From Candidatus Omnitrophota bacterium (GTDB taxonomy: Bacteria; Omnitrophota; Gorgyraeia; JAUYCX01), in contig JAUYCX010000119.1 in the NCBI GenBank assembly GCA_030692045.1, positions 25,688 through 89,687 on the forward strand: DNA of 64,000 bases, read 5' to 3'. Of this stretch, positions 9,281 through 31,200 are shown piece after piece (within the stretch, counting starts at the first letter, position 1; every line of letters starts with the position of its first letter). Position numbers and translations under genes: made by a program. The notes below the pieces were generated by a model, which saw only the letters and a program-made list of their open reading frames with translations, searched no databases and was not told where the DNA came from.

Positions 9281-9311
9281 AAACCGCTTTCTCAAATCCT
9301 AAAATTTTCTC

Positions 9312-9341: not shown

Positions 9342-9353
9342 TTGAGTGCAAGA

Positions 9354-9485: not shown

Positions 9486-9497
9486 AAGGAGCCAGGG

Positions 9498-10292: not shown

Positions 10293-10298
10293 CTGTAA

Positions 10299-10850
10299 AT
10301 GATGAAACTTTTATACAAAATAAAAGACAAAAATTCTCAACACACCATTGAATATTGTGTAATCATTGCCTTGGTGGCTTTGGGAATTATTTTAATGCGC
10401 AATTATGTTTATCGCTCAATATTTGCCGGAATGAAGATGTGGGAGGATGAGGTAGCTGATTCGTTGGAAGATGCAATAGAGCCGCCGCCGCTTCGGACGA
10501 TTACACTTCGTTTCAGGTATTATAGAACTACGGCTGTGAGGGTGGATAGGTATCCTTACTTAGACTATACTTTAGAATTATTAGATGTACCTGATTGTCC
10601 CTATAGAACTGTGGATGAATTTGGAGTGGAGACACTTGATTATCGCACAAATGGTTGCATACCAGCGGGTGGAAGTTGTAGTCATGCACCCATATATGGG
10701 GTTACCCCACGTTGCTGGGAAAAAAGAGCAGGAACTCGTGACTTACGAGGCTTTCAAACAGTAATCCAGATAGATGGAAGGGGTTGTTTTAAAATACCTA
10801 CTAACATTTGTGGTCAACCTATGCCCCCTCCTGAATGTAGAGATTGTTAG
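10299..10850 (+). CDS. Prepilin-like protein (minor pilin) with a Cys-rich domain
   Basis: KNSQHTIEYCVIIALVALGIILMRNYVYRS. Confidence 0.75.
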   Translation: MMKLLYKIKDKNSQHTIEYCVIIALVALGIILMRNYVYRSIFAGMKMWEDEVADSLEDAIEPPPLRTITLRFRYYRTTAVRVDRYPYLDYTLELLDVPDCPYRTVDEFGVETLDYRTNGCIPAGGSCSHAPIYGVTPRCWEKRAGTRDLRGFQTVIQIDGRGCFKIPTNICGQPMPPPECRDC

Positions 10851-10866
10851 GAGCAAAGGAAAAGTT

Positions 10867-11016
10867 ATGTTTCGCTTAAACAAAAAAGCCCAACACTTAA
10901 TTGAATACGCCATAGTTATTTCATTAGTGGCGGCGGTAATGGTGGCAATGCGCACATATGTTTATCGAGCCACACAAGCCACCTTAAAGACAATTGAAGA
11001 TGAGTTTTTTAAGTGA
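10867..11016 (+). CDS. Flp-like small pilin (49 aa; start re-assigned from 10774)
   Basis: MFRLNKKAQHLIEYAIVISLVAAVMVAMRTYVYR, preceded by AGGAGCAAAGGA. Confidence 0.75.
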   Translation: MFRLNKKAQHLIEYAIVISLVAAVMVAMRTYVYRATQATLKTIEDEFFK

Positions 11017-11031
11017 GGACATAAGTTATGT

Positions 11032-11061
11032 TCCGCCAAAGGTCTGTGGCGGACTCATTAA
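11032..11061 (+). repeat. 30-bp hairpin-leader repeat, copy 1
   Basis: TCCGCCAAAGGTCTGTGGCGGACTCATTAA, identical at 11689-11718; each copy directly precedes an SD. Confidence 0.85.
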
Positions 11062-11076
11062 AGGAGGTGAACAGAT

Positions 11077-11262
11077 ATGAGCAGGAAGAAAAGGTATAGA
11101 GCAGAAAAAGGCCAAAGCACCTTGGAGTATATCGTCATTGTAGCTGTGATTATTGGCGCAGTGATTATCTTTGCCACAAGTACGCTAAAGCCCAAAGTAG
11201 GCGAAAGTTTAAACCATGTGGCAAACCAAATGGAAGTAGTAGTAAATCGAATAACCTATTAG
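11077..11262 (+). CDS. flp: Flp family type IVb pilin (candidate major pilin)
   Basis: 61 aa, KGQSTLEYIVIVAVIIGAVIIF; strong SD AAGGAGGTG. Confidence 0.82.
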   Translation: MSRKKRYRAEKGQSTLEYIVIVAVIIGAVIIFATSTLKPKVGESLNHVANQMEVVVNRITY

Positions 11263-11292
11263 TTTCTTTAAAATAGATGGGGGTGAAATAAA

Positions 11293-11637
11293 ATGCTGAA
11301 ATTAAGAAAAAGAGGTCAGAGCACTGCCGAGTATGCAGTCCTAATTGGATTAGTGATTGCAGCAGCAGTGGGTATGCGTATATATGTTGAGCGCGGGCTT
11401 AAAGCCAGAACGCACGGTGCTATGGAGTATTTAACCAAGGAGACTAATGCGATTGATGGTTCAACCTTTAACCGTCAATACGAACCATATTACATGAATC
11501 AGCAGTATGAGGTTACACAGAATGCACAAGATAGAACAAAATTGAGAGAAGGTCAGAAAGTTGAGGTAACTGCCAATGCCAAAACCACTCGTGCTACAGG
11601 TGGTTTTTCAGAATATGGTAATGTAGTAGAAGAATAA
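11293..11637 (+). CDS. Flp/TadE-like pilin
   Basis: RGQSTAEYAVLIGLVIAAAVGMRIYVERGLKAR...QYEPYY. Confidence 0.8.
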   Translation: MLKLRKRGQSTAEYAVLIGLVIAAAVGMRIYVERGLKARTHGAMEYLTKETNAIDGSTFNRQYEPYYMNQQYEVTQNAQDRTKLREGQKVEVTANAKTTRATGGFSEYGNVVEE

Positions 11638-11649
11638 ATGTTTCATTTT

Positions 11650-11681
11650 ATCCTTGACCCACCTACGGCGAGGTCAAGGAT
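11650..11681. other. 10-bp stem-loop (mRNA stabiliser or weak terminator)
   Basis: ATCCTTGACC...GGTCAAGGAT, directly after the 11637 stop. Confidence 0.55.
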
Positions 11682-11688
11682 TAATTCG

Positions 11689-11718
11689 TCCGCCAAAGGT
11701 CTGTGGCGGACTCATTAA
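11689..11718 (+). repeat. 30-bp hairpin-leader repeat, copy 2
   Basis: Identical to 11032-11061. Confidence 0.85.
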
Positions 11719-11736
11719 GGGGGTGTAAATAAGACA

Positions 11737-12066
11737 ATGCTTAAAATAAAGAAAAAAATGGCACAGAGTACATTAGAGTATGCGATTTTAATCGTGGTTA
11801 TTGCCGGAGCTTTCTTAACTACACAGATGTGGCTTAAGCATGCAGTGCAGGGTAAAATAAGGTCTTCAGCTGATGATATTGGAGAGCAATTTTCTACTGC
11901 CTTTAGCAATGCGGATCTCAACTTTGATTCATATAGTAAGACTAATGAAACGGTTGTATCTAAAATTACCAAATCTACGCTTTTGGATGATGCTACCTCG
12001 AATAAGATTGACTCAATTAATTTATCGCATAACCAAGAATACTGGGGTCCAACATCAACACCGTAA
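11737..12066 (+). CDS. Flp/TadE-like pilin
   Basis: MAQSTLEYAILIVVIAGAFL...AVQGKIRSSADDIGEQF. Confidence 0.8.
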   Translation: MLKIKKKMAQSTLEYAILIVVIAGAFLTTQMWLKHAVQGKIRSSADDIGEQFSTAFSNADLNFDSYSKTNETVVSKITKSTLLDDATSNKIDSINLSHNQEYWGPTSTP

Positions 12067-12121
12067 AATCGCGCAAGGTTTGAAAACGATGCTAAAAGGG
12101 GTAAGTGTGGATAGGGTTCAT

Positions 12122-12493
12122 ATGGTAATTAAAGACAAAAAGGCGCAGCAGATAAGTGAATATGCTATTGTGTTAGCTTTAATTGTAAGCGCAGCTGCAG
12201 GCATGCAATTTTATGTTCAGCGCGGCTTGCAAGCCAGATACAAGGGTGCCACAGAAAAGCTTATCAGAGAGGCACGTGTAGCCACTATGCGCGACCCTGT
12301 GCCTATTCATGTTTCTATGCAATATGAACCCTATTACACCAAAAGTGAATACGAGATAACTCAGAGTAGTCACAAGCAGGAGAATCTTTCCACACACGCC
12401 GAGATTAGAACAGGATTATTGAGTAGGTCAATAAGTGAATCTACCTTGCGTAAAGGTTCTCAGGAAACCTTGCCAGCTAAGTTGGGAGATTAA
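12122..12493 (+). CDS. Flp/TadE-like pilin (start re-assigned from 11873; 12089 also possible)
   Basis: KKAQQISEYAIVLALIVSAAAGMQFYVQRGLQAR...QYEPYY. Confidence 0.75.
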   Translation: MVIKDKKAQQISEYAIVLALIVSAAAGMQFYVQRGLQARYKGATEKLIREARVATMRDPVPIHVSMQYEPYYTKSEYEITQSSHKQENLSTHAEIRTGLLSRSISESTLRKGSQETLPAKLGD

Positions 12494-12497
12494 GTCA

Positions 12498-12830
12498 ATG
12501 AAAAATTTAAGGGCGCAAAGCTTAACAGAATATGTAATTGTTTTGGGGTTGGTGGTAGTTGCGCTTACCACTATGCAGGTTTATATGCGTCGGGGTATTC
12601 AAGCAGTAGTTAAAGTTTCTGCAGATGAATTAGGCTTCCAGCAAAATAGCGAGGATGTGCTTGACCCGGCTAAGCAGGGCTTTTTAAGGAGCTTTCACTC
12701 TCAAGTTAATTCCCAAAGCCAGCGTCGAATGGTGGGTGTCCCAGGAGTTCTAAATAAAGATATTGATGAAAGTAGCACTTTTTCCTTAAATGGTATATAT
12801 TTTTTGGGTAATGAGGAGAAAAGTTTGTAA
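12498..12830 (+). CDS. Flp/TadE-like pilin (start re-assigned from 12435)
   Basis: MKNLRAQSLTEYVIVLGLVVVALTTMQVYMRRGIQA. Confidence 0.78.
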   Translation: MKNLRAQSLTEYVIVLGLVVVALTTMQVYMRRGIQAVVKVSADELGFQQNSEDVLDPAKQGFLRSFHSQVNSQSQRRMVGVPGVLNKDIDESSTFSLNGIYFLGNEEKSL

Positions 12831-13151
12831 ATGGATAAACACGCGCAGATTAGTTTAGAGGCAATTATCTTGATTATCATTGTGGTAGCCGCGCTTCTTA
12901 CTATGGATATTTATTTAAAACGCGCTATACAAGGTAGATGGCGAGGGGCTTCTGATGAGATAGGCGAGCAATACGAATACGGACATACCAATAGCGATTT
13001 TACGTTTAGCGTAGTAAGTAATACCGAAACGTTAATTAGTACTGAAGAAACTCGTCAAGGGGAAGGCAATGTCGTGATTACTACCAACAGAGTTGACTTA
13101 ACTGATATGTCAGAAACCAAAACAGGCACAGAATATGTGGAAGGTTATTAA
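12831..13151 (+). CDS. Flp/TadE-like pilin
   Basis: HAQISLEAIILIIIVVAALLTMDIYLKRAIQGRWRGASDEIGEQY. Confidence 0.78.
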   Translation: MDKHAQISLEAIILIIIVVAALLTMDIYLKRAIQGRWRGASDEIGEQYEYGHTNSDFTFSVVSNTETLISTEETRQGEGNVVITTNRVDLTDMSETKTGTEYVEGY

Positions 13152-14331
13152 TAAAGCGCAGACAGCCAGTGAATTGGCAATCTTTGGCACCATACTGGTA
13201 TTTGTGATTGGCGTACTTATTCGCTTTGCGCTTTCTTTTAACTATAACCAAGATTATCAAATGAGGGCTTTTAAAAGAGCATTGCAGTTATCTTATGCCA
13301 ATCAAGCTGACTCAGCAAATAGGTCTTTAGCCAGTGTTACAATTATCAATGATAGGGATATTCCAGAATTAAGCGACCAATTAGGCATAATGCAGCGCAC
13401 TCCCTATTTTGCCTCAGCCACAGCTATGTATAACAGTATGTTATTTGGCTCAACACGTTATCCTTATTACTTCCAATGGTGTGGTTCTGCGCCTGAGTGG
13501 TTGGATGATGGCCATCCTGATGCCTTGCCAGTAAATGATATTTATGTCAACAATGAACGCATTGTGCTTTCTGTGGCTGATTATGCTAAATACCCTTGTC
13601 CAGAGGGAGAGGAAAGAAAAAGGCAGATTATCTGGAGTGACCCAAAGTGGGCTGAGGCAGACCCTAATCCCAGTGGCAGTGACTATTGGCGTTGGTTAAG
13701 GTTTAAATGCGAAGACATTGACCCAGATGGAAGCCCGGATAATGGCCTTAATATTACCAGCGCCGATATTGATAATGACGGAAAAGAAGAAACTATCTTT
13801 GCGGCAATGGGTTGTCAGGAGGTAGTATGTGAGCCTGAAGACCCATTAGACCATGATAGCCCGGAAATTTGTAATTTAGTTTTTCATATTGCGGAGGTTA
13901 CAGTTTTAGATAGTCAATTAGGTGAAATTGACACAACCATTAACTCTGCAGATTTAAGAGATGAAGTAGAGCCTCAGGGTTTTAAACCAGGTTATAAGAT
14001 TTATGCGCGAGTAAATCCTGGTTCAAGCCATCAAAAACAAGAAACTTACACTGAAATAACCAATACCAATCAGGTAAGACGCGCAGATTTTATTTCTCGT
14101 GAAATACAGCTTAATCCCGCACATATTGACTATTATGGAAATCAGTTAAACGAACCTAATAACTGGCATGGTTTTTATTGGAGAAATAGAGACAGGCTTG
14201 TTCCGATAGCTAATGAAAGGTGTCAAGACCTTAATAAGGATAGGACTTGTCTGGATGTAAACGAAGCAAAGCTTTATGTCAGGAGTAGAATTAATGTGGG
14301 AAAAACGCGTATCTGGAAAACGCCTCATTAA
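13135..14331 (+). CDS. Large minor pilin/adhesin-like protein
   Basis: KAQTASELAIFGTILVFVIGVLI; acidic Ca-binding-like loops (DIDPDG, ADIDNDGKEE); several Cys. Confidence 0.7.
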   Translation: MWKVINKAQTASELAIFGTILVFVIGVLIRFALSFNYNQDYQMRAFKRALQLSYANQADSANRSLASVTIINDRDIPELSDQLGIMQRTPYFASATAMYNSMLFGSTRYPYYFQWCGSAPEWLDDGHPDALPVNDIYVNNERIVLSVADYAKYPCPEGEERKRQIIWSDPKWAEADPNPSGSDYWRWLRFKCEDIDPDGSPDNGLNITSADIDNDGKEETIFAAMGCQEVVCEPEDPLDHDSPEICNLVFHIAEVTVLDSQLGEIDTTINSADLRDEVEPQGFKPGYKIYARVNPGSSHQKQETYTEITNTNQVRRADFISREIQLNPAHIDYYGNQLNEPNNWHGFYWRNRDRLVPIANERCQDLNKDRTCLDVNEAKLYVRSRINVGKTRIWKTPH

Positions 14332-14545
14332 GGCGCAGGTAACCATAGAATTTACCTTTTGCTTGGTAATAGTGGTCTTGCTTTTTATTGCCTCTTTTTA
14401 TGCCCTTATTTGGGGAGTGGATATTTTGGTGGTCAGAACAACTAATTATGAGGCAAGTATGATTGGCGGTCGTGACCAGGTGGTTAAGGAGGATTTTTAT
14501 ATAACTCCTCCAATGAGTATAATACCCTTGATAAATCGGGAGTAG
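14294..14545 (+). CDS. TadE-like pseudopilin (start re-assigned from 14276)
   Basis: SD AGGAG at 14281; KAQVTIEFTFCLVIVVLLFIASF. Confidence 0.72.
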   Translation: MWEKRVSGKRLIKAQVTIEFTFCLVIVVLLFIASFYALIWGVDILVVRTTNYEASMIGGRDQVVKEDFYITPPMSIIPLINRE

Positions 14546-14557
14546 AGAGGTATTGGA

Positions 14558-16561
14558 ATGTTTCTTAAATTTCAACATTTTAAAAAAGGCAGGGTTTCTG
14601 GTCAGGTTGCCATTTTTATAATTTTAATTATTGCGATTATATTTTTATTTGTAGCTGTGCTAATGAATGTGGGTCAAGTGGCTTTAAACAAAACCATAGT
14701 TACCATTGCCGCAGATAGTGGAGCAATTACCTTGGCCTCTTATATTGGCAGTTCAGCGCGTTTTAATAAATATAGTTCAATGGGAGGCGCGAGAGAAATA
14801 TGTTTTTATACTGGATTTTTTGCTGGTCTCTTGAAGTTTCTGGCTGTTATAGTTGCTTTAATCACGATGAACCCTGCAAGCCTTTTCTGGACGATTGTGG
14901 CTTATGCTGGCGTAGCATTATCTGGAATAGCAATGATATTAGGAACAAGGGTTAATCATGGTCAAGTTCAGGCATTTAATAAAGAACAAGAGAAACTAAG
15001 CAAAGAACAGCAATTTCAGGAAAGGGCAATTCAAGCAGCTTTATTTCTGGCAGTTACGGATAATAAGCAAATCACGGATGATCAGCCTGGCAGGCAAGAC
15101 CAAGATATGGATGGCTTAATAAATGATGAGGTTAGTTATTTTGGAGACTGGTATTTAAAACAGAGGTTACAAGGTTTGGTGAGAGATGAGGAAGTTGCCG
15201 CTGCCATTAATACTTTCTTAGATGTTTTAAGAAGCACCGACGATTACCTTGGCTTTGCAGATTATCTTTATAAACGCGACCCTGGTGGTGTCCATTTCCC
15301 CCTCTGCAATCCTGAGGACCCTGTTAACTGGAACCCCACAGGCTATGAATGCGGAGTTTATTTCTGGATGGGCTCTGATGAGGGTAGTCGTCCAGTGACA
15401 GACAAACTAATGATGTTTCCTAATTTTTATGATTTGGAACAAAATGTGCCTTCTGCACCCATAGTTGATGGTTGGCCCATTGACAATATCGGGAATTTTG
15501 ATTTACGCTTTTGGCTGCCGGGAACTACCATAGACCCCCCTAATCCTGGAGAAGACGCTCAGGTTTGTGGTCGTGGTCGCGAAGGTGACCCGGGTTGCCC
15601 ACATTGTTATTTGGGCTGTAATATTCTTACGCGGCAGCCACCTGATGATGCAGTTGACCATTTAAAAGGCAGTATTAATGCCTTTCAAAGATTAGCCAAG
15701 GGATATTGCTGGCAGGAAGGTGATAAGACACAATGTGCTCCAGGAATTCTCCAATTAAGCCTAAATACTTTAATTCAGCAATTTCCTAATGGCTGGTTTA
15801 AACAGTTTTATAACCCTGAGACAAATGCAGATTGGTTTGATAGATTGCAAGAATGGCAAAATGATATTATAGCTTGGAGTGAGGAATTAGGAGTGATTAG
15901 AAATACCCTTAATATTCAGATTAGACAACATCAACAAACTCTACAAGGCATTGTAGACCCAATTTTACGCCAGCCATATTTAGACCGCATTGAAGAATTA
16001 AGTATCCTTGCGGGGAAGGTAGAAGCGGTTTTAGGTATGTTTGGTATGTTAGGCGGGCCTGTTTTTGGATTTGTTCAACGCATAACTTTACTTAGAAATG
16101 CAATTGAAGCTCTGAGCATCGTTGAACCTATTGTGCGCACTTCCATAGAGGCAGGTAACAAGGCTGTGTATGGCTGGGATGATAATCCAGAGGATGATAA
16201 TTTAGGCTGCCATGTGGTAAAGGTGGAGGCGGAAATGCCTTTAGAGCTTCCCCTGATATATTTAGATGAAGGAACATTTAGAGACTGCTATAAACGTCTT
16301 AACGAAACAGGCCGGGTCAAGGTCACGGTAACTCGCTTTGACCAAAGCAAGTCAGAGATGCGATTTGCTTTAGGCATACCCATTTGGAAATTTAATTTTA
16401 GCAACCCCTGGAAACCTGGCACATTTCAAGGTAATTGTACAAATGAGTCTGAGTGGGAGAGGGCATTGCCCTATGGAGTATCTAGCAGTGCCTGTGCTTG
16501 TTATGGACCTGAGCCAGCAAATATGATGTTTATAGGATGTGATGCGGAATGTCCATTCTAA
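14558..16561 (+). CDS. TadG-like pilus protein
   Basis: SGQVAIFIILIIAIIFLFVAVLMNVGQV...AADSGA (Tad domain); DQDMDG loop; Cys-rich regions. Confidence 0.75.
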   Translation: MFLKFQHFKKGRVSGQVAIFIILIIAIIFLFVAVLMNVGQVALNKTIVTIAADSGAITLASYIGSSARFNKYSSMGGAREICFYTGFFAGLLKFLAVIVALITMNPASLFWTIVAYAGVALSGIAMILGTRVNHGQVQAFNKEQEKLSKEQQFQERAIQAALFLAVTDNKQITDDQPGRQDQDMDGLINDEVSYFGDWYLKQRLQGLVRDEEVAAAINTFLDVLRSTDDYLGFADYLYKRDPGGVHFPLCNPEDPVNWNPTGYECGVYFWMGSDEGSRPVTDKLMMFPNFYDLEQNVPSAPIVDGWPIDNIGNFDLRFWLPGTTIDPPNPGEDAQVCGRGREGDPGCPHCYLGCNILTRQPPDDAVDHLKGSINAFQRLAKGYCWQEGDKTQCAPGILQLSLNTLIQQFPNGWFKQFYNPETNADWFDRLQEWQNDIIAWSEELGVIRNTLNIQIRQHQQTLQGIVDPILRQPYLDRIEELSILAGKVEAVLGMFGMLGGPVFGFVQRITLLRNAIEALSIVEPIVRTSIEAGNKAVYGWDDNPEDDNLGCHVVKVEAEMPLELPLIYLDEGTFRDCYKRLNETGRVKVTVTRFDQSKSEMRFALGIPIWKFNFSNPWKPGTFQGNCTNESEWERALPYGVSSSACACYGPEPANMMFIGCDAECPF

Positions 16562-16758
16562 TAAAGAAAAATAAAGCCAGCTTTGCCATTGAGTATTGTA
16601 TGCTGATTATAATATTGGTGGCTGCGCTTTTATTGATGCAGTACTATATTATTCGAGCTTTTGCTGGCAGATGGAGAACAACCGGCGATGTATTTGGTTT
16701 TGGCAAGCAGTATGAGCCGGATGTAACTGTGGTATGTGAGGGTGAGGAATGTCCATAA
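16549..16758 (+). CDS. Small Flp/TadE-like pilin
   Basis: KASFAIEYCMLIIILVAALLLMQYYIIRAFAGRWRTTGDVFGFGKQYEP. Confidence 0.72.
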   Translation: MSILIKKNKASFAIEYCMLIIILVAALLLMQYYIIRAFAGRWRTTGDVFGFGKQYEPDVTVVCEGEECP

Positions 16759-16810
16759 AGAGAGGTTAATCGTTGAAGGGTTGCGTAGCTAGAAAGGTTG
16801 AATATATGTT

Positions 16811-16951
16811 AAATCCGAAATCCGAAGCACGAAATCCGAAACAATGTTCAAATTTCCTAAATCCGAATGACCAAAACCAAAGCTGTTTTGAACATTTGGA
16901 CATTAGAACATTCGAGCTTGTTTCGAATTTCGGATTTCGAATTTCGAAATT
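16811..16951. repeat. Palindromic heptamer-repeat element (AAATCCG / TTTCGAA units)
   Basis: AAATCCGAAATCCGAAGCACGAAATCCGAA...TTTCGAATTTCGGATTTCGAATTTCG can fold into a long imperfect hairpin in the intergenic space. Confidence 0.75.
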
Positions 16952-17004
16952 AACCTTGTTGCCACATAATTCAACACTCTCATTGACGAAAGACGAGAAA
17001 TAAT

Positions 17005-17853
17005 ATGCTTCAATTTGCCATAATTCTATTAACCTTTGGAACAGTGGGGCTTTTAAGCGGACAATATATTCCAGTGTTGGTTGAGAAGATTCACAAGATT
17101 AATCTTAAACGCGCAGAGAAATTGGCAGATAAAACAGAAAGAATATTTTTAAAAGTTCGCATTGATAAAATGATTTTATTCTATCTGCTTTCACCAATTG
17201 TATTAGGCGGCATAGGATATTTTATCTTGCATAATCTTTTGGGTGTGTTAGTAGGAGCTGGCATCGCATTAGTTATTCCCAGTATCTATATAAAAAATCT
17301 CCAGACGCAGCGTAGGACCAAATTTCATAAACAGCTTATTGACGGCCTGTTACTATTATCCAGCTCTCTTAAGGGGGGCTTAAGTTTAATCCAGGCATTG
17401 GAAATAATGGTTGAGGAAATGCCTCCGCCTTTAAGCCAGGAGTTTGGCATTGTTTTAAGTGAGAATAAGATGGGCGTATCTTTGGAAGAATCTTTTAAAC
17501 GGCTTTATCAGAGAATACCCAGTCCCGAACTAAATCAGATGATTACAGCCATAATTCTGGCGCGGGAAACCGGCGGAAATTTACCTTCTATCTTTTCCAG
17601 GTTGGTTACTACCTTAAGAGAGAATACAAAGATTATCCAAAATATTCAGACTCTGACTTTGCAGGGCAGGCTGCAAGGCACAATTATGTCAGCCTTACCA
17701 ATTGTTTTTGGGATATTTGTGTTTACAGCTAGTCCTGGTTTCTTTAATATAATGTTCGAATCAGAAACAGGCAAGGCGCTCTTAATTTACTCAGTAATTT
17801 CAGAGGTTATTGGTATGATTTTAATTCGTAGAATTAGTAAGATTAGTTTTTAA
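17005..17853 (+). CDS. tadB: Tad inner-membrane platform protein TadB (T2SSF family)
   Basis: QLIDGLLLLSSSLKGGLSLIQAL...PLSQEF...ETGGNL...TLQGRLQG. Confidence 0.9.
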   Translation: MLQFAIILLTFGTVGLLSGQYIPVLVEKIHKINLKRAEKLADKTERIFLKVRIDKMILFYLLSPIVLGGIGYFILHNLLGVLVGAGIALVIPSIYIKNLQTQRRTKFHKQLIDGLLLLSSSLKGGLSLIQALEIMVEEMPPPLSQEFGIVLSENKMGVSLEESFKRLYQRIPSPELNQMITAIILARETGGNLPSIFSRLVTTLRENTKIIQNIQTLTLQGRLQGTIMSALPIVFGIFVFTASPGFFNIMFESETGKALLIYSVISEVIGMILIRRISKISF

Positions 17854-18110
17854 GTGAGGACATAAGTTATGGAGACATATATTAATAAAAATCTTAACGA
17901 CATAACTTATAAGTCCGAACTTATCCCGACGAATATGTCAAAATTATCGAAGAGAATTTTGACATGGTTTATGAGTCGGGATACAATTGATAACATTTGC
18001 CCATTGCGTAAACATCCCAAAAATCTCTACGATATTTTTGGGATACGCTATGGGGTTAATTCGCGCAAACAACTTATGTCACTTTCGTTCCATAAGTTGT
18101 GCGCTCATTA
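17847..18110. repeat. Non-coding MITE-like insertion with imperfect inverted ends between tadB and tadC
   Basis: Left end AAGTGAGGACATAAGTTATGG versus right-side ACAACTTATGTCACTT and CCATAAGTTGTGCGCTCATTA; the left 25 bp are identical to 11006-11030. Confidence 0.5.
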
Positions 18111-18112
18111 AT

Positions 18113-18982
18113 ATGATAATCCTTATTACATTATTAATTTTTATGGCTGTATTTCTTCTGGTGTACTTTATTCTCTCTAAAGGCAAAACTGCTGATATTA
18201 AACCGCCTACACTTCCCTTGGAAAAGGAGATAAGTTTTGAAAAGAAAGGGTTTATGCGTAATTTATTTTCTCACATTTCACTAATTAATAAACCCTTGGC
18301 TGGAGCATTTAGGTATGGCTTATCACGCAAATTATATTCGGCAAAAATAAAGATTTCCATAGAGGAATTTTTCCTAATTAAGGAATTACTAATTATAACT
18401 TTACTTGTTTTATTTTTACCAATGATAAAACAACTTAGCCCGATTTTTTATTTAGTGCCAATTATTGTGGGCTTTTTTCTGCCGGATATCTGGTTAATTA
18501 TGAAAATAAAGGCAATTAAGCAAGAGCTCGTAAAAAATTTGCCAGATGCCATTGACTTATTGAACTTGTGCGTAAATGCCGGCTTAGATTTTATGTTAGC
18601 CCTAAAATGGGTGATTGATAAATCCCCTGCCAATGCCTTAATTGATGAATTAAATTTGGTGATGCAGGAGATTAATTTAGGCCGTCCCAGAAAGGATACC
18701 TTAATTGATTTAGCCAAAAGATATGATATTGCAGAGTTATCTACATTTAGCCGCACCTTGGTTCAGGCAGACAGGATGGGCACCTCAGTAGCCGAGGCAT
18801 TGAATATACTCTCTGAGGATATGCGCTTGAGTAGATTTCGTCTGGGAGAGCAGATGGCTTTAAAGGCGCCCATAAAATTACTTTTTCCGCTTTTGGTTTT
18901 TATTTTTCCAGTGGTAGGGATTATTATTGGCGCGCCGATTATTTTACAATTTTTGCAGACAAAGACATTTAGCGCGTTTTAG
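18113..18982 (+). CDS. tadC: Tad inner-membrane platform protein TadC (start re-assigned from 17987)
   Basis: LPDAIDLLNLCVNAGLDF...EINLGRPRKDTL...QADRMGTSVAEAL...KAPIKLLFPLLVFIFP. Confidence 0.9.
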   Translation: MIILITLLIFMAVFLLVYFILSKGKTADIKPPTLPLEKEISFEKKGFMRNLFSHISLINKPLAGAFRYGLSRKLYSAKIKISIEEFFLIKELLIITLLVLFLPMIKQLSPIFYLVPIIVGFFLPDIWLIMKIKAIKQELVKNLPDAIDLLNLCVNAGLDFMLALKWVIDKSPANALIDELNLVMQEINLGRPRKDTLIDLAKRYDIAELSTFSRTLVQADRMGTSVAEALNILSEDMRLSRFRLGEQMALKAPIKLLFPLLVFIFPVVGIIIGAPIILQFLQTKTFSAF

Positions 18983-19243: not shown

Positions 19244-22200
19244 ATGGACCAAGGAAGTAACAGACAATCTGAGAGCCAAGATACGATAGGCAAGAAGCCA
19301 TTTAAGAGTAGCTTTAAGAAGTGGCTTAGAATAGTTGCCTTGATTATAGTGGCTGTGTTTTTGCCTGAGCAGGTTTCCTGGGCAATTGAATATAATCCTG
19401 CTGTGCTCTGGAAGAATCTTATTTTCCAAGGAGCCAACTATCAGCATAACTTAGCCGCTAATTTTAAAATACCTAACCAGAATGTCAAGGTTCCCAAAGA
19501 GCTGATTATTGCCGAAAATGTCAGGCAAACTTTAAAGCAGTTTGCATACAAGACTATAAAGGATGTGCAACTTGCACCCAATCTAATCATTAGCCCTGCC
19601 AATGACGAGGGAGTCTTCTTAACCTCAACCAAAATCCAGAAAATCTATGAATGGTTAATTGACCCAGAAACTAAGCTAATTAACTGCGCCTCCCAATCTT
19701 TGCATTTCATTGATGTTCTCTTAAGTGGCTATGGAATAAAGGCTTCCATTGAAGAAATGTCCATTCTGGCAATCCTCACTGATATCCTTTCTGGCAATAT
19801 TGAGGAATATAAAGGAAGATTATATTTATCAATGTATAGTATTATGCAGGTTGCCAGGAATTATGGCTTAGACCTCTATCCCACCAAAATAACTCCTGAT
19901 TATTCTACTTTAAAAGCCTTACGAACACCATTTATTGCGCATTTTAATCAGCCCAAACATTTTGTGTTAGTTACTGCAGTTACTGAAGAAAAGGTTTGGA
20001 TGATTGAGCAAGGAAATACCCCAACATTCCTGCCTTTAGAGAAATTCTTCAAAGAAATAAGCGGCTATGTTTTAGTCGGCAAAGCTGATAGCCCCAAAGG
20101 CCTTTCCTTAGTTACGCCTGAGCAAGCCAGAGAGGTTTTTGGCGCTGGCAGAAATGATGTTTACAGATTCCGTACTCAGGACTTAAGGCAATCTCGGCCA
20201 ATAATTAACAATAACTATCGGACTAATAGTAGATTTGCCTCGGCAATGCCAAATAGATTTGCCTCTCCTATACCTCGCACAAGTTTACCTAAAATAAGTC
20301 GGTCTAACTATGTTCTGCCTCGACAAAGCCCGCCTCAACTTAGCAGGCCTGCTTCTATTAACCAAAGTAGAAATGCTCTTGCGTATAGCAGAAGTGCGCT
20401 GGCTTATAATTATGGTAATGCATATAGCAATTATCGAGGCGGTGTTGGTGGCAGAGTAATCTCTGGTGGAGGTAGCAATGGTCGGATATTTGAAGACCGT
20501 TCAAACCTATTAAGAGGACCGAGCATGTTTGATGTTTTGTTAGGTAGTTTGATAAGTATTGGATTTGCCTTTATACCAGTGCCAGGAGCCCAAGCTGGAA
20601 TCCTATCTAAAATTCCTATGGCATTTACAATGGGGCTTTCTGATTTTACCAGTGCATTCGCCGCTTATGGTGTTTATAAATGGGGTTGGGACCCTGCCTG
20701 GGCGCAGTTTGGAGCAATGGTTACTAACATTGCCATACCTATGGGTATGCAGAGGGTTATGGCGCCTCGCTTGGAGAACTTGCCTGCTGGTTTTATTGGA
20801 CCACGCAACATTTTGCCTAAGACTCTGGGCTGGGGTTTAGCTGAATTGGGCAAGGGTTTTGCCATGGGTGTTTTAATGGGTTCAATTAATGCCGGCACAA
20901 CCTTAGTAGTTCAAAATGCTTTAAAGGGTTGGAAGACTAATCCCGCAGTAAAACAGGCAATGATTTCTCTATTAGGCACAGCTATTAGTGTGCCTGTGGA
21001 GTCTTTTGTTTTAGGCAGTTTAGGTGATAAGAGTCATTTTGATTATAAAGATAAAAATGGAGAATTTCACAGCCCTAATTTTAAAAATGAGTTGTTTAGC
21101 CTAAGCAATGGCTGGCAAGCTCTAAAATTCAGTCTTAAAAATCCTGAGTTTCAGAATTTTATGATTTCTGAGTCAGTCTCTACGGGAATTATATATGGCG
21201 CCTACAAAGCTGGCAAGATGAATTCTCCTAACAGTTTGATTTTAGGCAAGAGTATTGGGCAGGGTCTTGGCCAGTGGTTGGGAAATAAATATTCGCCTAT
21301 ATATAATCCCAAAACCGGTAAGTTGACAGAAAATAAATGGGTAAATCTCCTGATTAATAGTTCGCTTTCAGCAGGAGCATCAATTGCCTTAAGTTCTTGG
21401 CAAGGCAAATATATCAGCAATTTAGGCAGATACGAGAGGGGAAATCTTACGCCTTTGCAAGTTGAATCCATTAATTTCTTAGCCACAAATTTATTGTCCA
21501 GTTCTATATCAAGCCTAAGCGGAATAAGCCTAAACGGTTTGGAGAAAGTTGAATTTTGGGGTGAGTTCAAAAAGAATTTCATAAATGCCGCAGAAAATTA
21601 TCAAACTGTAGGCGGCTCAGCAGAATTTATGGCGCTTGACCCTCTCTCCACTACTGAAAATTATTATAGATTTCAGGTTGCCAGCAATATTTTTAGATTG
21701 AATAGATATGCGACGAATCTAAATGATATGGCGGGAATTTTGGATTTACCTCAGCGCGCAGATAAAATCTGGCGCAGAATGGAAAGGGAAAATAAAAGAT
21801 TGTCACAGCCCCTCTCTGATAAAGAACTGCGCAAAAAATGGCGCGAAGCAGTTAGCGAAGATATTAAAAGTAATGCCGGCGTAATGAAATACACCACCTC
21901 TGTTTTGCACCAGCAGGCAGTGCAGAATTTAACTGCACCCATAAATCTGGGCTTGCAGCTTGGCTTAGGATATTTAGGTCGTCGCATAGAAGCAATCCCT
22001 CATTTTGGTAAATATTTAAGATTTGAAACCGGCGGCTCTGTGAGAATTAAGCGCTCAATAGAAAAAGATATGTTTCAGGATGCCTTTCCTGCTCTGGATG
22101 CAGGTAGAATTACGCAAGAAGGTGGCAAGTTATTTTATACAGAAGAAGCAGATGATACGCCCAAGGAAATAGCTAAGTTATATCCAGAGTTACATTCAGA

Positions 22201-25200
22201 AGTAGATGAACCAAGGGAAATTGGTTCAATTTGGCAGGATGAGAATGGTGTATTTTATATTCAGCCCCTCCCCCTCTTCGGAAAAGCAACCCAAAGTTAT
22301 GATATGGAAGGCAGCGGTCTTATTGCCGAAGGCAATTTACCCATAATTCCTGGTTCTCAATCAGCCGAGGGTTATTCTGCGCGCATTCCCACCAAAGCCA
22401 CGCATCTGCAAACCTATAAGCAGCACTTAGGATGGTTAGGTAGGTTTGCGGATAAAATAGGAATTTGGAAACCCTCTTCAGATTATGACCCTAACCGTGT
22501 TGTAAAAGTTGATGCCCTGCAAGTTAAGAACAATTGGTTTGATAAAAAACTTCTCACAGGAGTGAATCAATCCTTTCTTCAATCTGTATCAGAAAGTAAG
22601 CAACCTGCAGAGGCTAAGCTGCGTGCATGGAGAGTGTATGACTTAAGAAACAAAAAACAATTAATTGGCTTTTTTGGCATAATCCCTAAGAAAGGTGAAG
22701 CGCCAGGCATATATCAAGGCGGTAAAGTCATCGCACCTCTTTTTGCCACTTGGGTAGATAAGGGAATACCGCAAGCGGTATTTAAATTTGGAGAGAAATT
22801 AGCCTTTACATACACAACACATTCTGCAGGCGCTCAGAGTACGCCAGCACAACCGTTTATTCTTTATGGCAGTATCAAGAAAACAGGCGAAACAACTTGG
22901 CAGATAAACCAAGGTTCTATAGTGCCATTTAACTTAACTGCCGGAAGAAAAGATGCGTTTGGTTCTCCCTTTGCTGTTCAAGACGGACAGGCTTTGCATA
23001 CAATTCCTCAATCGTTTATTGCTGACCTTATGAAGCCTAACTCCTTCGAATCTCATATGGGTTTTGCAGGCGTATCCCCACACAAACATTTAACTAAACC
23101 AGAAGTTCGTTATAAACCAGGCGTAGGCTATATTCCTTTACCTGCATCCCCTGTTTCCCAACAACCTACTGTTTCCCAACAACCTACTGAATACAAAAAA
23201 GAATCACAATTAACTCAACCAGGCGTAGGTCTTGCGGCTAAACGTTCCTTTGGTTTTTCTTCCACAACTACTGAGACCACACTACAGAATAACATTAACC
23301 AAATTGAGCTTTCTGGATTTACTTTAGGCGGCAATCCCATCATCACGCAAACAGGCACAACTTTTGCGCCCTCCAGAAGTTTTATTTCTGGTAGCTATGA
23401 CAAGCCTTTAATTACAGAAACCCGTGTAACCACGCACACTATCTCTAAGGAAATGGGTAGTTTGGCTATGACTACTATAAACGGCCCTGCAGCCGCTGCA
23501 GTTTCTACAACCAGCGATATCACTACTACTGTAACCGATAGAACTTTAGAAACAGGAAAGGAAATACAAATCTCCTCGATGCATAAGCCCGCTTCAAGAA
23601 AATGGGAAACTGTAGAAGGAGAGATGCCTAAGGGCACAAAAGAGCATGAAGAAACTGCAGAGCAGACACAAACCAGATTGTCTGGCAGGCATTCTCCTGG
23701 TTCTAGACCTCCCTGGTTAACCTCCCAGCCTTTGTCAATGCCTTTAGACACTGGCGTTATTCATAAGCTTGACATAACCGATTCTGGAAAGGGCTATATT
23801 GATATAAAACAAAGATGGCAAGAGGCAGGATATTCTCTCGCAGGTGTGGATTTATGGGGTCAACGCTATGAGCAGCAAATGACCTCATTTACCCAAACAC
23901 CTTTAAACACAAAATCCATTCGAGTGTTTGCCGATGAGAATTACTTTAGAACTCTTCCAAATGTAAGCAAAAGCAAGCTGGATACAGCTTTTATTCAGGG
24001 ACACCTTGAAAGACAGGGCGCAACAGAGGTAGTAGTGAATGCCTTTGGAGAAGCTAAATCTTTAGGAGGAACTGCAGGTTTCCAAAGAGACAACCTAACC
24101 CTCAACTTCTTCGCAGCAGACAAACAAGGCAGCTATTCCTTAAATCCTTTCTTTTTTACAGAAAGCCGTCTTGGTGAGGATTTCTACCAAGGCACAGCTT
24201 ATATTCACCGTCAAGGCTTAAAGAGAGACGATAAACAAGGCACAATTACGGCCCAGATAATGCGCGTCTCAACCTCTGGTTCTATGAGAATCTCGCAGTC
24301 AGCAGAGAAGGAAATGTTTCATAATGCCTTTCCAGGATTGGATGCGAGTAAGATTACTCAAGAAGGCGACAAACTATTTTATAAAGCGGGAGACAAACCT
24401 AGAGAAATTGGCTCTATTAAGCAGGGCAAAGATGGCGCAACTTATATTCAACCCTTCTTTGGAGGAGTAACAAGACGTTATGATATGACAGGCAAAGGCG
24501 GACAACATCTTGCACAACAGGATTATTTTGAGGTGGATGAACGTCAAGCCAGAAGACCAGAATTTACCTTCAAAGCTGGTCAAAAATATAACATCGGCAC
24601 AGGCAGTAATTGGAAAGGTGTTAACTTGAGTGAGGGTGCTCAGGGTGAGATAGAAAAAGCAGCGCTTTTTGGTGATGGAAGCCTAATCCATCCGCCTATG
24701 GATTCAGATAATCATCCAGTTGAGCCAATTGCCTCAGGACTTTATATTGGCTCAGACTTTGGCGGAAATTTTTCTGGCTGGGCAGTGTATGCAGATGCTG
24801 GCGCCAGGGCTCAATATCGAAACTGGGGCGTTGAGATTACCAATAAATTAGTTTACTCAGGTCAAATGCAAAATATCACAGAAGCTCAGGCAGAAAAACA
24901 AATGGCGCATTCCAGTAACTCTAAAGGGTTGTTTGATGCAGACAAGGTTTCCTGGTGGCAGCGCGCAATTAATCCAGAAACCGCTAAGTATTTTGCTGAC
25001 TACAAAGAGTATTGGCAGTATCATGAAACGCATCCAGGTAGCCAATCCAGGTTAGAAGCAGAATTCAAAAGCCCTGAAAATAGAATGGCAATCATAAATA
25101 ATCAGCCCACAATCACAGCTTTAGCTGAGGTTAGCTTTGATAAGATAGGCACAGCTGTTGAGGAGGGCCATTGGGTGATGCCCAATACAGGATTAGATAC

Positions 25201-28200
25201 AGCCACCATAACTTATATGCCGGATGGCAGGATTAGCGGCAACATTCACAATTTTGATGTTATCACCCAGCAACGTGTTACGCAGGCAAAAGCGCTTATG
25301 GCTTCAGGCAAGCGTATTATTGATGAGAGAATGTTTCAAGATGCCTTTCCAGGATTGGATGCGAGTAAGATTACTCAAGAAGGCGACAAACTATTTTATA
25401 AAGCGGGAGACAAACCCAGAGAAATTGGCTCTATTAAGCAGGGCAAAGACGGCGCAACTTATATTCAGCCTTTTGGCATAGGAACCAGAGGCTATGATAT
25501 GACAGGCATAATTCCAGAGGAGACTGCGCAAGGCTTAGAAAATCTCGGTAAAGATTTTAATAGAAAATTAGTTGAGAATGCCGAGGTGATTGTTCCGGTT
25601 GTCGCATTAAATGGCCAACTAATTGAGAATAGTGATATTGTAACCCTTCACTCAGGATTAGCCTTATTTACTAACCCGCAAGAAGCAGTGCCTTATCTAA
25701 CTCCTGAAGGAGATATGCCGCTTAGACTATCAGATTGTTTCTACCAGAAAGCTCGCAAGGGTTATGAGGAGCTCAGGCCTGCTTTAAGAACAATGCAAGA
25801 CCTCTTTGCTGACATAGGACTTTTAGGGGAGCAAAAGAAAGATACTTCTTCTAAATACGCAACACTAAGAATAGCAATAAATAACTACCTTACCCAAGAC
25901 GCAGATTTTAATAGCCTCTCAAAATCTGGTTTGGTGGATATCACGGGAAATGTTTATACCAGCCGTCTCCGGTCAGAAGGTATTGCACCTTTAAGAACAG
26001 CTCCCCTTACTACGGGTGTAATGCGGTTTAATCCAAATACGGATACAGTGTATTTGGGAGTGCAGGCGCAATTAGGAGGCAAGGCACAAGGAAGTCTTTA
26101 TTTGTCCCCTGAATTTACCAACGTAGACCCTGGTTTAATGTTAGGATTACAGACCTATAAAAATTATGACCAGGGCTTGATGCGCAGTATTGCTCCGCAA
26201 GAACAAAAGCCCCAGGACCAATCTGCCCCAGAAAAGTCTAATCAGCGCGGTTTTGATATGGACATCTCTCCTTTTAGGTCAGCCACACACTTAACCGGCT
26301 TGACTTCACAGCAAGGCGCTGTTTTAGCTAACCAAGGCACCTTGGAATACCTGCATTTTGGCCAGAAACTGCATAAGAATTTTGGTCAGGGCACAATTAT
26401 TGAGGGCGAGATTGAAACCCCTCATGTCGTGGTTCCAGGCGCTGAGACATCTGCCGATGGTACGTTTAAGGTTACAGAGATTCACACTGCTGATAAATTT
26501 AAAGGTATGATGATGTTTGGCGGTAGAGAGCGCGGTGGCATTGCCACAATCGGTGAAGGGTTCACTAAGACAAACTCTGAGCCATCAATCTCACTCATTG
26601 CCAGAGGATACGCTGGAGGTCTGGTTATTGCCAAGGTAGTGGCAGAACTAAAAGACTTAGGTCAGTATAATGTCAATACTACCTTAGGCAACAAGATTAG
26701 TGGCAATGAAAGAATATTTTTCTTAAAAGACACAAAACAGGCAAAAGGAAGAATGGCAGCTGGCATTGCCGGCGAAGGACAGAGATTAGAAACCGGAACA
26801 GTTGGATTAGGCTTTGAACCCATCAAGGACTCAAAAGGCAAGGACTTAAAAGGCGCCTACGGCTTGAAAGGCGAAGGCACAGGTGTGGCTCTCTGGGATT
26901 TTAGTAGTTTATTACCCCTTGAGGGCTCAGGGACTCAGGGAGAAAAAATGAATCGCAATGTGCGTGGCTTCATTGCAGAAACCGCAGCCAAGAAAGGTAA
27001 AGTATTTTATGATGAAGTAGTCCCCAAATATATCCCCTATTATGGCTTATTTTCCAATGGCCCAATAAAAGGATTAGACTTTGGTCCTAATCTTTCTGTC
27101 TATGCACCAGACAAGAATCTTAGTCAGTGGGACATTGGACTAATTCAGCGCACATTAAATATCAATGAACAGGGTATCTCTGAAATTGGAAATATAAACG
27201 TTAGTTCTGCCACACTAAGCAATTTAAGAAATAATACACCTCTACACACCCGAGAGGTTATTAGCCAAGAGGAATGGGACAAAAAAGAATTACAAGAGCC
27301 AGGATTAAAAGAGACGCTGCGCGACAACAATAATTTCCGTTTTGGCAGAAACCTACTAATTAATGACATTGGTCCTGGCACAAAGATGCTGGTTGTGCCA
27401 AAAGGAAGAGGTGCGCCCAATGAGTTCCACATTGATTTCTTTAAAGAGGTAAATGATGGCCAAATAATTCCCGGCAGAAAATTCTGGGTAGAAAATAAAG
27501 GTCAAGGCATTCTTTCCTTTGATATCTTAAAAGAAGATTTAGATAATTTCAAGATGGCAGGCCTGAAAGCAGATTCTAAGAAGCCAGATTACTTACTCTA
27601 TAATGATTGGCATGCTTATATGTCAAAGCCGGCAATGACACGTTACATTGGCTCAGGTCTTTATTACGGTGTGAAGGCTTATCTTAATGAACATCCCAAA
27701 CAAAAAGTAGAAGATGTTATGAAAGATGTCTTAACCGACACCTTTAAAAATTTACGCTTAAATGGACACACTTTAGATAGTCAAACTTTAGATAACTTAA
27801 CTTCTATTGTTTCCCAGTTGTTTGATTCAAAGGTCAGCCAGAAAAATAGAGATACACTTTTAGCTTCATTAGGCGAAGAAATTGCTAAGATTTCAGGATT
27901 AGATAAAAACCCGTTTTTGTTAGCACAGGTATATGAAAAACTGCAGCCAGTGATGGATGCAGAGGGAAAAGTTGACCATTATCGCATTACCGCAGGTGTT
28001 GAAGGTTACAAAGAGCTTACTGCTACTTATGATGTGCGATATGAAGATTTACCTACTGTAAAAAAAGATGGAACACCTTTAGGCGGAAGCACACCTTATA
28101 TCCTTGCCGGCCAGCGTTTTGCTGCACCATCTGTTCAAGGAGTGATGTCAGGTTTTAAAAGCGATAAGCCAGATGAGCAACTTACGCCATCGTCAGACCC

Positions 28201-31200
28201 AACCGAGCCATTAGAACGAGTAAATGCCACAGCCGAATTAGACTACCTGGGAACAAATTCTAAGGAAGGCATAATAATTGATACTCCCTGGATGTCTCAA
28301 GTGAGTGTAGGTGCAGGTCCTGATGGTAAACCAGTTATTCGTCTGTTTGGTTTACAGGATGATACCTTTAACCTTGAACATTATGAAATTGGAAAAGGCG
28401 GTGCCTATTATGGCTGGGGCGGCGGGATTTTAAGAGACTGGTCTGGAGGTTCAAAAATAGATTTTGTCAAACAAAAGGGCGAAGATGGTAAGGAACAATA
28501 TGTTCCGATAATTAGGGATGGTGGTATTAAGAATGGCGGTCAGTTTAGGCCAGTATTTGCCAATGAGCTGGGTATTGTGGATAGGAAGATAGATGTGGAT
28601 AGTGAGACAGAAGCAAATGGCACTTTAGCCCTGCTTTATGGAAACAAGGGTTGGTGGAAAGCTGATGTCAAAGAAGAAAATGGCAAAGAATATAATACCT
28701 TTACTCCTTTAGGTCTTCTTTTATTTACAACCAGTCCTGATTTAATCCAGTCTGGTCATATTGCCAGTGTTTCTGACTTATATGGAGTCAAAGATTATTT
28801 AGCCGGTAGTTCAAATCAGTTTAATTTTGAGAAGGGTAGTGCGCGCTGGAATGAAAAAGCAGGTATTACATTATCCTTTACAAATCCTAATTTTGGCGAT
28901 GGCAAACGTTTTGATGTTTTGCTTCACGGCACCAAGAACAAGCCATCCCCAGAAGCAAGTTCAGATAGTCAACCTCAAGTAGTTAATGATTTAGTGGGAA
29001 CTTATAATAAGGATAATAAAGGTCCTGCACAAGTTGATTATCGCAATGTTGAGGTAGCTAAAACAGAATTTCCCGACGCAGAAGAGGGTTCAATTAAAAA
29101 CTTTGCCACAGCAGAGATTGCCAAAGAAGGTCTGGCTCTACAGCCATTCCAAACAGTTGCTACTTCTGCCTGGGGTTTGCCAGGGGTTGCCAGCTTAGCC
29201 ACTGTTTCAGCTGGTCTAAATACTTTATCTCTGACACATAATCTAAAAATTCAGAAGGGTAGTGTTTATATCTCGCCTCAGGGAGAACAGGTTTTTGGAA
29301 AAGATACATTTGCATATCAAACACTAAAGCTAACTGAAATCCCTAAGGATATTCAGAAAAAAGTAAATTATTTAGCTGAGCATACAGGCTTAGGAAAGCC
29401 TAAAAACTTAGAAGGCGAGGTTACCCTGTATGGCCAATTTGTAATAACTGATAAGGGTAGTAGTTTTGTTCCATTTTCTTCTGACTTCAATATTTCTTCT
29501 CTGGGGAAAAATGGAGAAAGGCATAAATTTTATATTCGAAAAGATTCTGAAGGCCGCATACGTTCTTTTGATATTCCTTCTATTACCGATGAAATGCCTG
29601 AGGCAAAAAAGAGATTAGAAAGCCTGCAAATGACAGCCTGGAGTGGGCGCGCTACAAAAGACTTGCTTAGCGGGATTTTAAACTCACCTACAATTCTTGC
29701 AGCCTCAGTTTTGATTCCTCCTCTTTCTGGGGCAAGAACTTTAGGAATAGCCCGTTCAGGAGTTTCAGCAGCATCAAAATCATCAATATGGCTGCGACTA
29801 ACCTCAAGAATATGGACAAAGGTGTTAGGAAAACCTTGGGGTGCAGTGGGCTTTGCCAACGCAGGAAGAGCTGCTAAGGCATTGGGCATTGCTAAGGTAA
29901 TAGGTAGAGTTGCAGGTTATACAGCAATTACTACTGGGACAAGTGCAGTAGGAGCCTATCACTGGGATAAACATTTATTAAAAGATGCACATTTAGAGAA
30001 AAATATAGAAGCTCAGCTAAGAGAAAAAGGTAAGCAAAATATTTATAACCCCTCTGCGGTAAAATCCTTCTTTAAAGGTACATTTTTAACTCCTGGCAGG
30101 AATTTATTACGTACCCCCTTCATAGCCAACTGGTTGGGCATTCATAGCCCTAACATTGATGTCTTATCTTCATTTGAGGCATTTAATTTTAATGATTGGG
30201 CTTATCAGCAAGGTTTATTAGGTTTGCCCTTATCTTACTCTGCAGGTGCTTTACGAAGCTGGCTAAGCGTAGCCACATTTTCTTCACAACTTAGCTTTTT
30301 ATTAAACCCCTTAGGAACAGGAAAAGAATATTATGCCATGGCAAAAGGTTTAGGCTCTGGAGCGTTACTCGGAGAAGGAGCAAGATTAGTTGACATCGCA
30401 TATTTATTAGGCCAGTATTCAGGTGCTAGAACAGGGTTTAAAGGCATAGGCAATAGCTTAGAAAGGGCTCGCTCCACATATCAACTAACAGGCAGATTGT
30501 CTGGTTTAATGACACGAACAGAGCAGCTCTTTAAGACCACTCCCAAATTTATGTTTGTAAATACAGCCTTTGGCTTTATGCTTCCACTTTTAAAAGGTGG
30601 TGAAGGTATTTCTCCTGAAACCCTATCCAAGAGTCTAAAGGCAGTGGCTTATCAGATGGATACCATCATCAAGTCTTCTTTTGGTATGGCTTTAACCTCT
30701 GAACTTTTAGGCTTTGCCATAGGCAAAGCAACAAATAGAATTCCACAACTTAATAATTGGTCAACTTGGCAGACAATTGGGTCTGGTGTTGGCTTGACAG
30801 GTGTAGGTTATGGTTTATTACCTTTGTTGGGAAGAAAACTTGATGGCAGGCTTGGTAATGTTGTTTCTGATGCAGGCATATTTATTGGTGGCATAGGTCT
30901 TAGCTTAATCACAAAAGGCATAACCAAAGGTATTGTTGATAGTCGCATTGGTAGAGGATTAATAGCTTTTGAAGATAGGGTAGATAACTGGGGGCGTTTA
31001 GCAAAATATCCTACAAAGTTAGGTTTGGGTTTGGTCAAATTAGGTGGTAAATCCTTCAAACTTACTGCTAATGCCTTTTCCACAGGCAGCATATGGTATG
31101 GTGCTAAAGTAGCAGGAGTGGATTATCTGATAAGTTATGCCCAATATTGGTTACAAAAAGGCACTCCCCAAGAAATAGCCAAGCCTTCTTATCTGGATAA

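Follow-up and report, generated by a model that had tools for sequence, protein, structure and literature searches.

The window, by which we mean the whole 64,000-nucleotide stretch of Omnitrophota DNA that was analysed, holds a giant open reading frame (ORF) that starts at an ATG at position 19,244 of the forward strand, runs without a stop to the window's end (14,919 codons) and reaches at least 18,015 residues at the end of its contig (C51); the product is rich in transmembrane segments from about residue 6,870 onward. Upstream lies a Tad/Flp-type secretion and pilin cluster (Table 1), with genes for RcpC, a secretin, an ATPase, two T2SSF proteins and Tad, and with small class III signal/Flp-like genes. 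An IS200-type transposase sits inside this cluster and, together with a second transposase-like ORF (positions 6677–9280), separates the ATPase gene from the pilin genes. A row of about nine small genes whose N termini are of the class III signal/Flp-like type ([KR]-[AG]-Q-x-x-x-E-Y) and which have weak Pfam matches occupies positions 9498–14545, ahead of the Tad gene. The intergenic region 5' of the giant ORF (positions 19020–19215) carries short repeated words of the ACACGGAT/CACGAAT type together with their inverse; these words may represent a hairpin or a mobile repeat of small size. One DNA sequencing run, which may be the source of the stretch itself, contains it without differences, and no RNA run is listed with it.

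Several features of the giant protein lie far from its N terminus. A near-identical repeat, TNVE-x-LGLQTLYEWLAYYTKLAI, occurs at about residues 5,880 and 7,340 (window positions of about 36,880 and 41,260), some 1,460 residues apart. Past the window, still on contig C51, seven TPR-like repeats with a spacing of 34 residues occupy residues 16,380–16,610, followed near residue 16,860 by what we judged by eye to be a subtilisin-like motif. The same genome (G000) has other open giant-ORF fragments, one of 14,198 residues ending on contig C76 and two that span the whole of contigs C97 and C52 (5,502 and 5,012 residues), which may encode the rest of the giant protein.

Table 1. Features of the giant ORF and its upstream cluster (window coordinates; residues counted from the ATG of the giant ORF)
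Feature	Residues	Position	Strand	Basis or remarks
Tad/Flp-type secretion and pilin cluster		414..18982	+	upstream of the giant ORF
Giant ORF		19244..64000	+	scattered methyltransferase, TPR, sigma-70 r4, SPase II-like, Big_5 and other matches
Signal-peptide-like region	1–47	19244..19384	+	basic n-region, hydrophobic core, conserved FLPEQVSWA
Family-specific N-terminal extension	86–139	19499..19660	+	AF2 pLDDT 95–98
C39/papain-fold peptidase core	140–279	19661..20080	+	Pfam, Foldseek, VIA-align
Predicted nucleophile	Cys148	19685..19687	+	Cys in 110/117 aligned domains; invariant in 89-row alignment
Predicted general base	His239	19958..19960	+	His in 116/117 aligned domains and 137/137 representatives; invariant in 89-row alignment
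Column of catalytic Asp	Glu255	20006..20008	+	D 83, E 19 of 116
Double-glycine-type leader motif	287–301	20102..20146	+	L-15, V-12, A-7, V-4, G-2, A-1
Arg/Ser/Asn-rich low-complexity insert	302–425	20147..20518	+	composition
Gly/Ala-rich hydrophobic segment	426–600	20519..21043	+	homologous to relatives' post-motif segment

The N terminus of the giant protein appears Sec signal-like, as judged from its n/h/c pattern (KKPFKSSFKKW / LRIVALIIVAVFLP / EQVSWA) and from a conserved motif, F-x-P-[ED]-Q-x-x-[WQ]-A, which is kept in 112 of 145 homologs and occurs once in this genome, in this protein; signal peptidase I would be predicted to cut after A47. The extension that follows is confidently modelled by AF2 as a helix plus strands packed ahead of the protease core. 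The core itself matches Pfam Peptidase_C39 (PF03412) over residues 195–278 (E 2.5e-10; 40.8 bits against a cut-off of 22), the Cys-bearing first third of the profile being unmatched by sequence. The AF2 model built from an 89-row alignment (pLDDT 91.4, pTM 0.89; 39.5 pLDDT from the single sequence) has as its top fold matches leader-bound LahT (6MPZ), PCAT1, and ComA, with 6mpz as the best Foldseek match (E 5e-6) and a VIA-align Z score of 13.5 against 6mpz_A (rmsd 2.4, 121 residues aligned); Atlas matches were to generic C39 clusters (<0.9). The earlier note's reading of the ORF head as a C39 peptidase placed elsewhere than on an ABC transporter is thus borne out by the Pfam score and the LahT/ComA fold: Pfam finds no ABC domains in residues 1–14,918, TIGR03796 reaches 21.5 bits against a cut-off of 853, and the fusion to ABC membrane and ATPase domains that marks PCAT/AMS proteins is absent. 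PF03412 retrieves no second C39 gene from this genome, which is 95.7% complete.

Cys148, the predicted nucleophile, is the sole Cys among the first 2,164 residues, and the catalytic Cys is kept in 135 of 137 representative homologs (the other two are unaligned there). The presumed third catalytic residue is Glu rather than Asp, and the oxyanion Gln at Cys-6 is present in only 1 of 133 homologs. In LahT the supposed oxyanion Gln stands 4.3 A away in 6MPZ and is not in contact, according to the available part of PMC6363468, which softens the lack of this Gln in the giant-protein family.

Directly after the domain, 8 to 22 residues past its end, lies a sequence with the grammar of a double-glycine leader: L287, V290, A295, V298, G300, and A301 occupy positions -15, -12, -7, -4, -2, and -1, and G302 follows, all as the earlier note had written them. 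G300-A301, V298, A295, and V290 agree with the double-glycine rule (GG, GA, or GS at -2/-1 and hydrophobic residues at -4, -7, and -12), in which Ala is allowed as far as the rule is set out in the part of PMC10885120 available. The leader is internal, in the protease's own chain, and not on a separate small N-terminal precursor, and the NCBIfam leader models do not match the segment. The predicted scissile bond is A301|G302, between nucleotides 20146 and 20147. A position-specific scoring matrix (PSSM) derived from homologs scores the site 13.5; scores of 15.7 and 12.9 occur in unrelated proteins of this genome, so the motif alone is not rare by this measure, yet it is the top scorer among some 18,000 positions of the giant protein. 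A chance motif was rejected on its conserved position directly after the domain in homologs.

We examined this conservation with queries that ended at residue 281, before the motif, and that matched 225 of the 401 genomes of the phylum, some matches spanning the signal region only. From 289 matches, 110 loci were taken (the best 30, 60 from further down the list, and 20 distant or multidomain, with some truncated loci skipped), giving 118 domain hits, or 117 after removal of half of one split hit. A regular expression written from the literature rule ([LIVM]x7[IVLM]xG, within 50 residues past the domain) was found after the first or only C39 domain in 93 of the 107 genome loci with a complete tail; the background rate was 16–23%, with 125 hits in 545 downstream windows and 56 in 353 windows from the giant itself. 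A second set consisted of the 150 best among 371 representatives at 50% clustering; 13 were dropped, and the other 137 were complete at the domain end and in the tail. The strict expression came after the first domain in 136 of these 137; a PSSM score of at least 5 was reached in 128 of 137, as against 25 of 2,053 background windows, and because the training motifs of the PSSM overlap this set the regular expression is the cleaner test. Since kin are not independent, these counts are descriptions and not p-values. Conservation of the motif in homologs, proposed as a check in the earlier note, is thus strong; no clear motif is seen in a handful of first domains, such as L083, L097, and L103. 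A homolog search for longer proteins returned three, and a homolog carries the source label Ca. Omnitrophica.

Position by position, Gly(-2) is present in 109 of 114 aligned rows and -12 and -4 are aliphatic; in the 133 sites selected as PSSM-positive, every -12 and -4 residue is aliphatic and every -2 residue is Gly. Position -1 is mostly small (A 73, S 22, N 16, D 9, G 8, K 4, M 1), with N, D, K, or M in 30 of the 133. Of 133 sites that follow a Cys-type domain, 101 have W, L, or M at -3, and 15 different residues are seen at +1. The role of -7 as a large hydrophobic leader position, also put forward in the earlier note, is weak in the family: Ala (67), Ser (20), Lys (16), and Gln (12) prevail, Lys or Gln accounting for 28 of the 133, and a large hydrophobic residue occurs in 11. 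Across homologs -15 lies 4 to 25 residues past the domain, a bounded linker.

The sequence after the motif changes abruptly. In most relatives a Gly/Ala-rich hydrophobic segment starts 10–25 residues past the motif; here its homolog comes about 125 residues later, a profile of 19 relatives' post-site segments matching residues 430–484 (E 3.8e-5; E 2.9e-10 with P0011). The site is a junction, at which this protein carries an insert of about 115 residues and relatives switch right away to unrelated or bacteriocin-core-like sequence. The Arg/Asn/Ser-rich stretch described in the earlier note stands as to its composition (19 R, 17 S, 14 N, and 11 G among the 124 residues of 302–425; pI 11.7), which suggests disorder, but it is a lineage-specific insert and not a conserved feature, none of the 117 other downstream segments being homologous to it. 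In a distant branch the motif is directly followed by amphipathic or hydrophobic helices, which by eye we take to resemble bacteriocin cores. A GlmS-type Cys-Gly-Ile right after the motif was not found in the loci and proteins that we examined.

We favor the interpretation, with a probability of about 0.62, that the C39 head uses its tethered leader to cut its own chain once, in cis, after Gly300-Ala301, and so releases itself. The protein would first be exported by the Sec system and the C39 domain would fold outside the cytoplasm; the tail would then fold back, V290 and V298 entering the leader-binding groove and G300-A301 lying in the narrow cleft at Cys148. One cut would free residues 48–301 (28.7 kDa) and give the giant body a new N terminus at G302. 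In most relatives this terminus would open straight into the Gly/Ala-rich hydrophobic segment, which may resemble a bacteriocin core or a translocation helix; in this protein the basic low-complexity insert would come first. Because it stays joined to the freed protease, the leader would fill the groove and silence the enzyme after one turnover, and for this reason the C39 domain is probably a self-removing prodomain and not responsible for dividing the remainder of the giant into modules. The shape of the modelled tail agrees with such docking: residues 286–305 are predicted with block pLDDT values of 93 and 83, with a helix at residues 292–295 (-10 to -7) and a beta-bridge at F299-G300 (-3/-2), which matches the published description of the leader bound to LahT in 6MPZ, with an extended stretch at -3 to -1 and a helix at -4 to -11 (PMC6363468, available part). 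On this reading the tail would lie docked in the protease cleft.

Some features of the family sit less well with a self-cut in cis. LahT works poorly when -7 is Lys or Asp (in the accessible portion of PMC6363468), and -7 is Lys or Gln in the homologs counted above; the Cys-6 Gln is missing; -1 is often noncanonical; and a clade with Ser in place of Cys keeps the motif. A tethered substrate would be present at high local concentration, and this would account for the relaxation at -1 and -7, for Glu in place of Asp, and for the absent Gln.

The Ser clade bears most on an alternative that we consider unlikely, namely, that the tail is never cut and forms a built-in pseudo-substrate or structural cap, the domain serving as a chaperone or inhibitor, like the noncatalytic C39-like domain of HlyB, with any activity directed at other substrates. 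We found 34 C39-like domains with Ser at the nucleophile position, all in one clade of single origin (support 100/99), in which H-F-G-x-S replaces the catalytic N/P-C-G; the label was set by this motif, and no Cys row falls inside the clade, whose members come from other genomes (L098–L100, L104, L105, L109, and L111–L144). The leader motif is present in 32 of 32 complete Ser-clade domains (2 incomplete ones left out), with A, S, or T at -1 and with amphipathic or hydrophobic helices to follow, and in a PF03412 search of five Ser-type genomes the Ser-type domain was the sole match in four, with no match in the fifth. In these genomes, then, conservation of the motif does not depend on Cys, as a cap would predict, and the frequent noncanonical -1 and the confident modelling of the tail as if it were part of the domain fit a cap as well. 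The Ser, the His, and an upstream His are, however, invariant in the clade at a median identity of 39%, a pattern that suits a dead enzyme and a changed nucleophile equally. Either Ser is nucleophile enough for the tethered cut or the motif has a role other than cleavage, and the domain is a candidate serine-nucleophile papain fold or a candidate pseudo-protease.

Two further observations argue against a cap. A restriction of -2/-1 to small residues and a sharp change of sequence immediately past -1, both seen here, are what a cut site and not a cap would predict. In addition, second and third internal C39 copies retain Cys and His and have the motif in none of 7 cases by PSSM (>=5) and in 2 of 7 by the regular expression, which shows that the motif is not needed for the fold, although these motif-less domains form a single clade and the control they provide counts as one event. 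The copies occur in proteins of 2,300–3,300 residues with two or three C39 domains (L091–L095, from G037, G069, G307, G274, and G025). In each, the tethered motif accompanies the first domain alone; those after it terminate in Pro-rich sequence and may thus be free to cut other substrates.

We regard it as improbable that the same bond is cut in trans by the C39 domain of a neighboring copy, in the way that PCAT peptidases cut separate leaders. Canonical C39 domains do act in trans, and trans cleavage of double-glycine leaders is textbook knowledge (PMC10885120, in the part available). A two-chain fold with domain and tail as separate chains also reached the mark, scoring 0.51 against 0.02 for the best control, a result that is rated weak and for which no contacts are given, its class (<=0.60) holding 18 of 157 solved complexes together with both mismatches that passed (contacts agreeing to at least 81% between runs, partner pLDDT of at least 56); the score lends weak support to the favored reading too, and it may reflect memory of solved C39-leader complexes of the 6MPZ kind. 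The bounded linker, on the other hand, suggests a cis arrangement limited by geometry, the copy number of giant proteins is probably low, and the StbD-CT precedent is obligately cis.

A processive polyprotein protease, for which this would be merely the first of many double-glycine-like sites along the giant, is very improbable. The general proposal was made by West-Roberts et al. (10.1101/2023.11.21.568195, as far as its text is available), and the giant does contain two copies of D-E-T-N-N-L-G-D-G-G, at about residues 15,034 and 15,313. No other site in the 18,015 residues, however, rises above background, the next PSSM scores being 10.6 and 9.5 against up to 15.7 in unrelated proteins; DGG is observed 4 times against 4.2 expected, GG/GA is under-represented, and once the first cut has been made the groove should be obstructed by the tethered leader. 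On the PSSM background and the non-enriched DGG, multiple processing sites and DGG punctuation were rejected for this giant. The two copies themselves (about residues 15,027–15,036 and 15,306–15,315, on contig C51 just past the window) each precede a hydrophobic segment and possibly represent a module junction motif.

We give hardly any credence to cleavage by another host enzyme, such as a prepilin peptidase from the neighboring Tad locus that takes [KR]-G-[AS] plus a hydrophobic helix for a class III-like signal, because, for all that class III-signal genes lie upstream and that the Ser clade has Arg or Lys at -3 in 26 of 32 and a Phe-initial hydrophobic helix directly after the motif in 19 of 32, here -3 is Phe and 124 hydrophilic residues follow, the Cys set prefers W, L, or M at -3, and the -12/-4 spacing is that of the C39 leader rule (PMC10885120, available part).

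Extending the favored reading, self-cleavage in cis after Ala301, to the phylum as a whole is more speculative. We advance only tentatively, and as a doubtful generalization, the idea that giant and other large secreted proteins of this phylum use a self-removing module of C39 domain and leader to unmask a bacteriocin-core-like, membrane-inserting N terminus, like enormous bacteriocin precursors aimed at prey membranes, with one branch using Ser for Cys in the papain fold. Whether and where Omnitrophota giants are cut is a question posed in the literature, and the motif gives one exact predicted bond, conserved across the phylum, that could be tested on a 40-kDa recombinant fragment without culturing the organism. 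The predicted cut would define the mature N terminus for proteomics and structural work and suggests that it is a membrane-inserting segment. If the reading is true, the module would be a compact self-cleaving one with relaxed +1 specificity and possible use as a traceless tag.

Among known systems, the C39 domains of PCAT/AMS transporters (LahT 6MPZ, ComA 3K8U/5XE8, and PCAT1) share with the giant protein the fold (Z 12.7–13.5, rmsd 2.3–2.4), the Cys-His-acid order, and the leader grammar of hydrophobic -12 and -4 and small -2/-1. Unlike them, the giant protein has no ABC transporter, its C39 domain standing behind a signal-like peptide in a chain of more than 18,000 residues; its protease and leader share one chain, with the leader on the C-terminal side; and in its family -7 is mostly Ala, Ser, Lys, or Gln, -1 includes N, D, and K, and there is no Gln at Cys-6. 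The C39-like domain (CLD) of HlyB (3ZUA) has the same fold (Z 12.0) and offers a model for a noncatalytic role and for the Cys-to-Ser clade, whereas the giant protein keeps both Cys and His; to our knowledge, the CLDs of HlyB-type transporters have no tethered leader. FapD, the periplasmic stand-alone C39 protein of Pseudomonas amyloid export, likewise acts outside the cytoplasm, and a homolog of the giant weakly matches NCBIfam C39_FapD (E 0.008, far below the family cut-off). FapD is a separate protein and acts in trans.

StbD-CT, a C39 toxin of contact-dependent inhibition (CDI) from Citrobacter rodentium (PDB 8SSK), has the C39 fold (Z 11.9–12.0) and obligately cleaves its own chain in cis after Gly-Gly, in a linker N-terminal to the peptidase, which frees the active toxin protease (10.64898/2026.05.07.723447, in the part available); in the giant protein the predicted site is C-terminal to the peptidase, with a full leader-like helix, and a cut would free the protease head from its cargo. 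The Omnitrophota giants with N-terminal C39 domains described by West-Roberts et al. share architecture and gene context with our ORF, which is very long, has a signal-like N terminus followed by C39, and lies downstream of a T2SS/Tad-like locus; a C39 domain near a predicted signal peptide and a T2SS/Tad-like locus upstream are reported for these giants, and autocatalytic cleavage has been suggested (10.1101/2023.11.21.568195; 10.64898/2026.06.07.730766; preprint text in part). The literature searched, which includes these preprints in part, names no cleavage site for omnitroph C39 giants and describes no phylum-conserved protease followed by its own full C-terminal tethered leader. Measured against the available text of these sources, the C39 heads on giants and the autocatalytic idea are known, and what appears new is the exact site and a leader of the protease's own, placed C-terminal to it.
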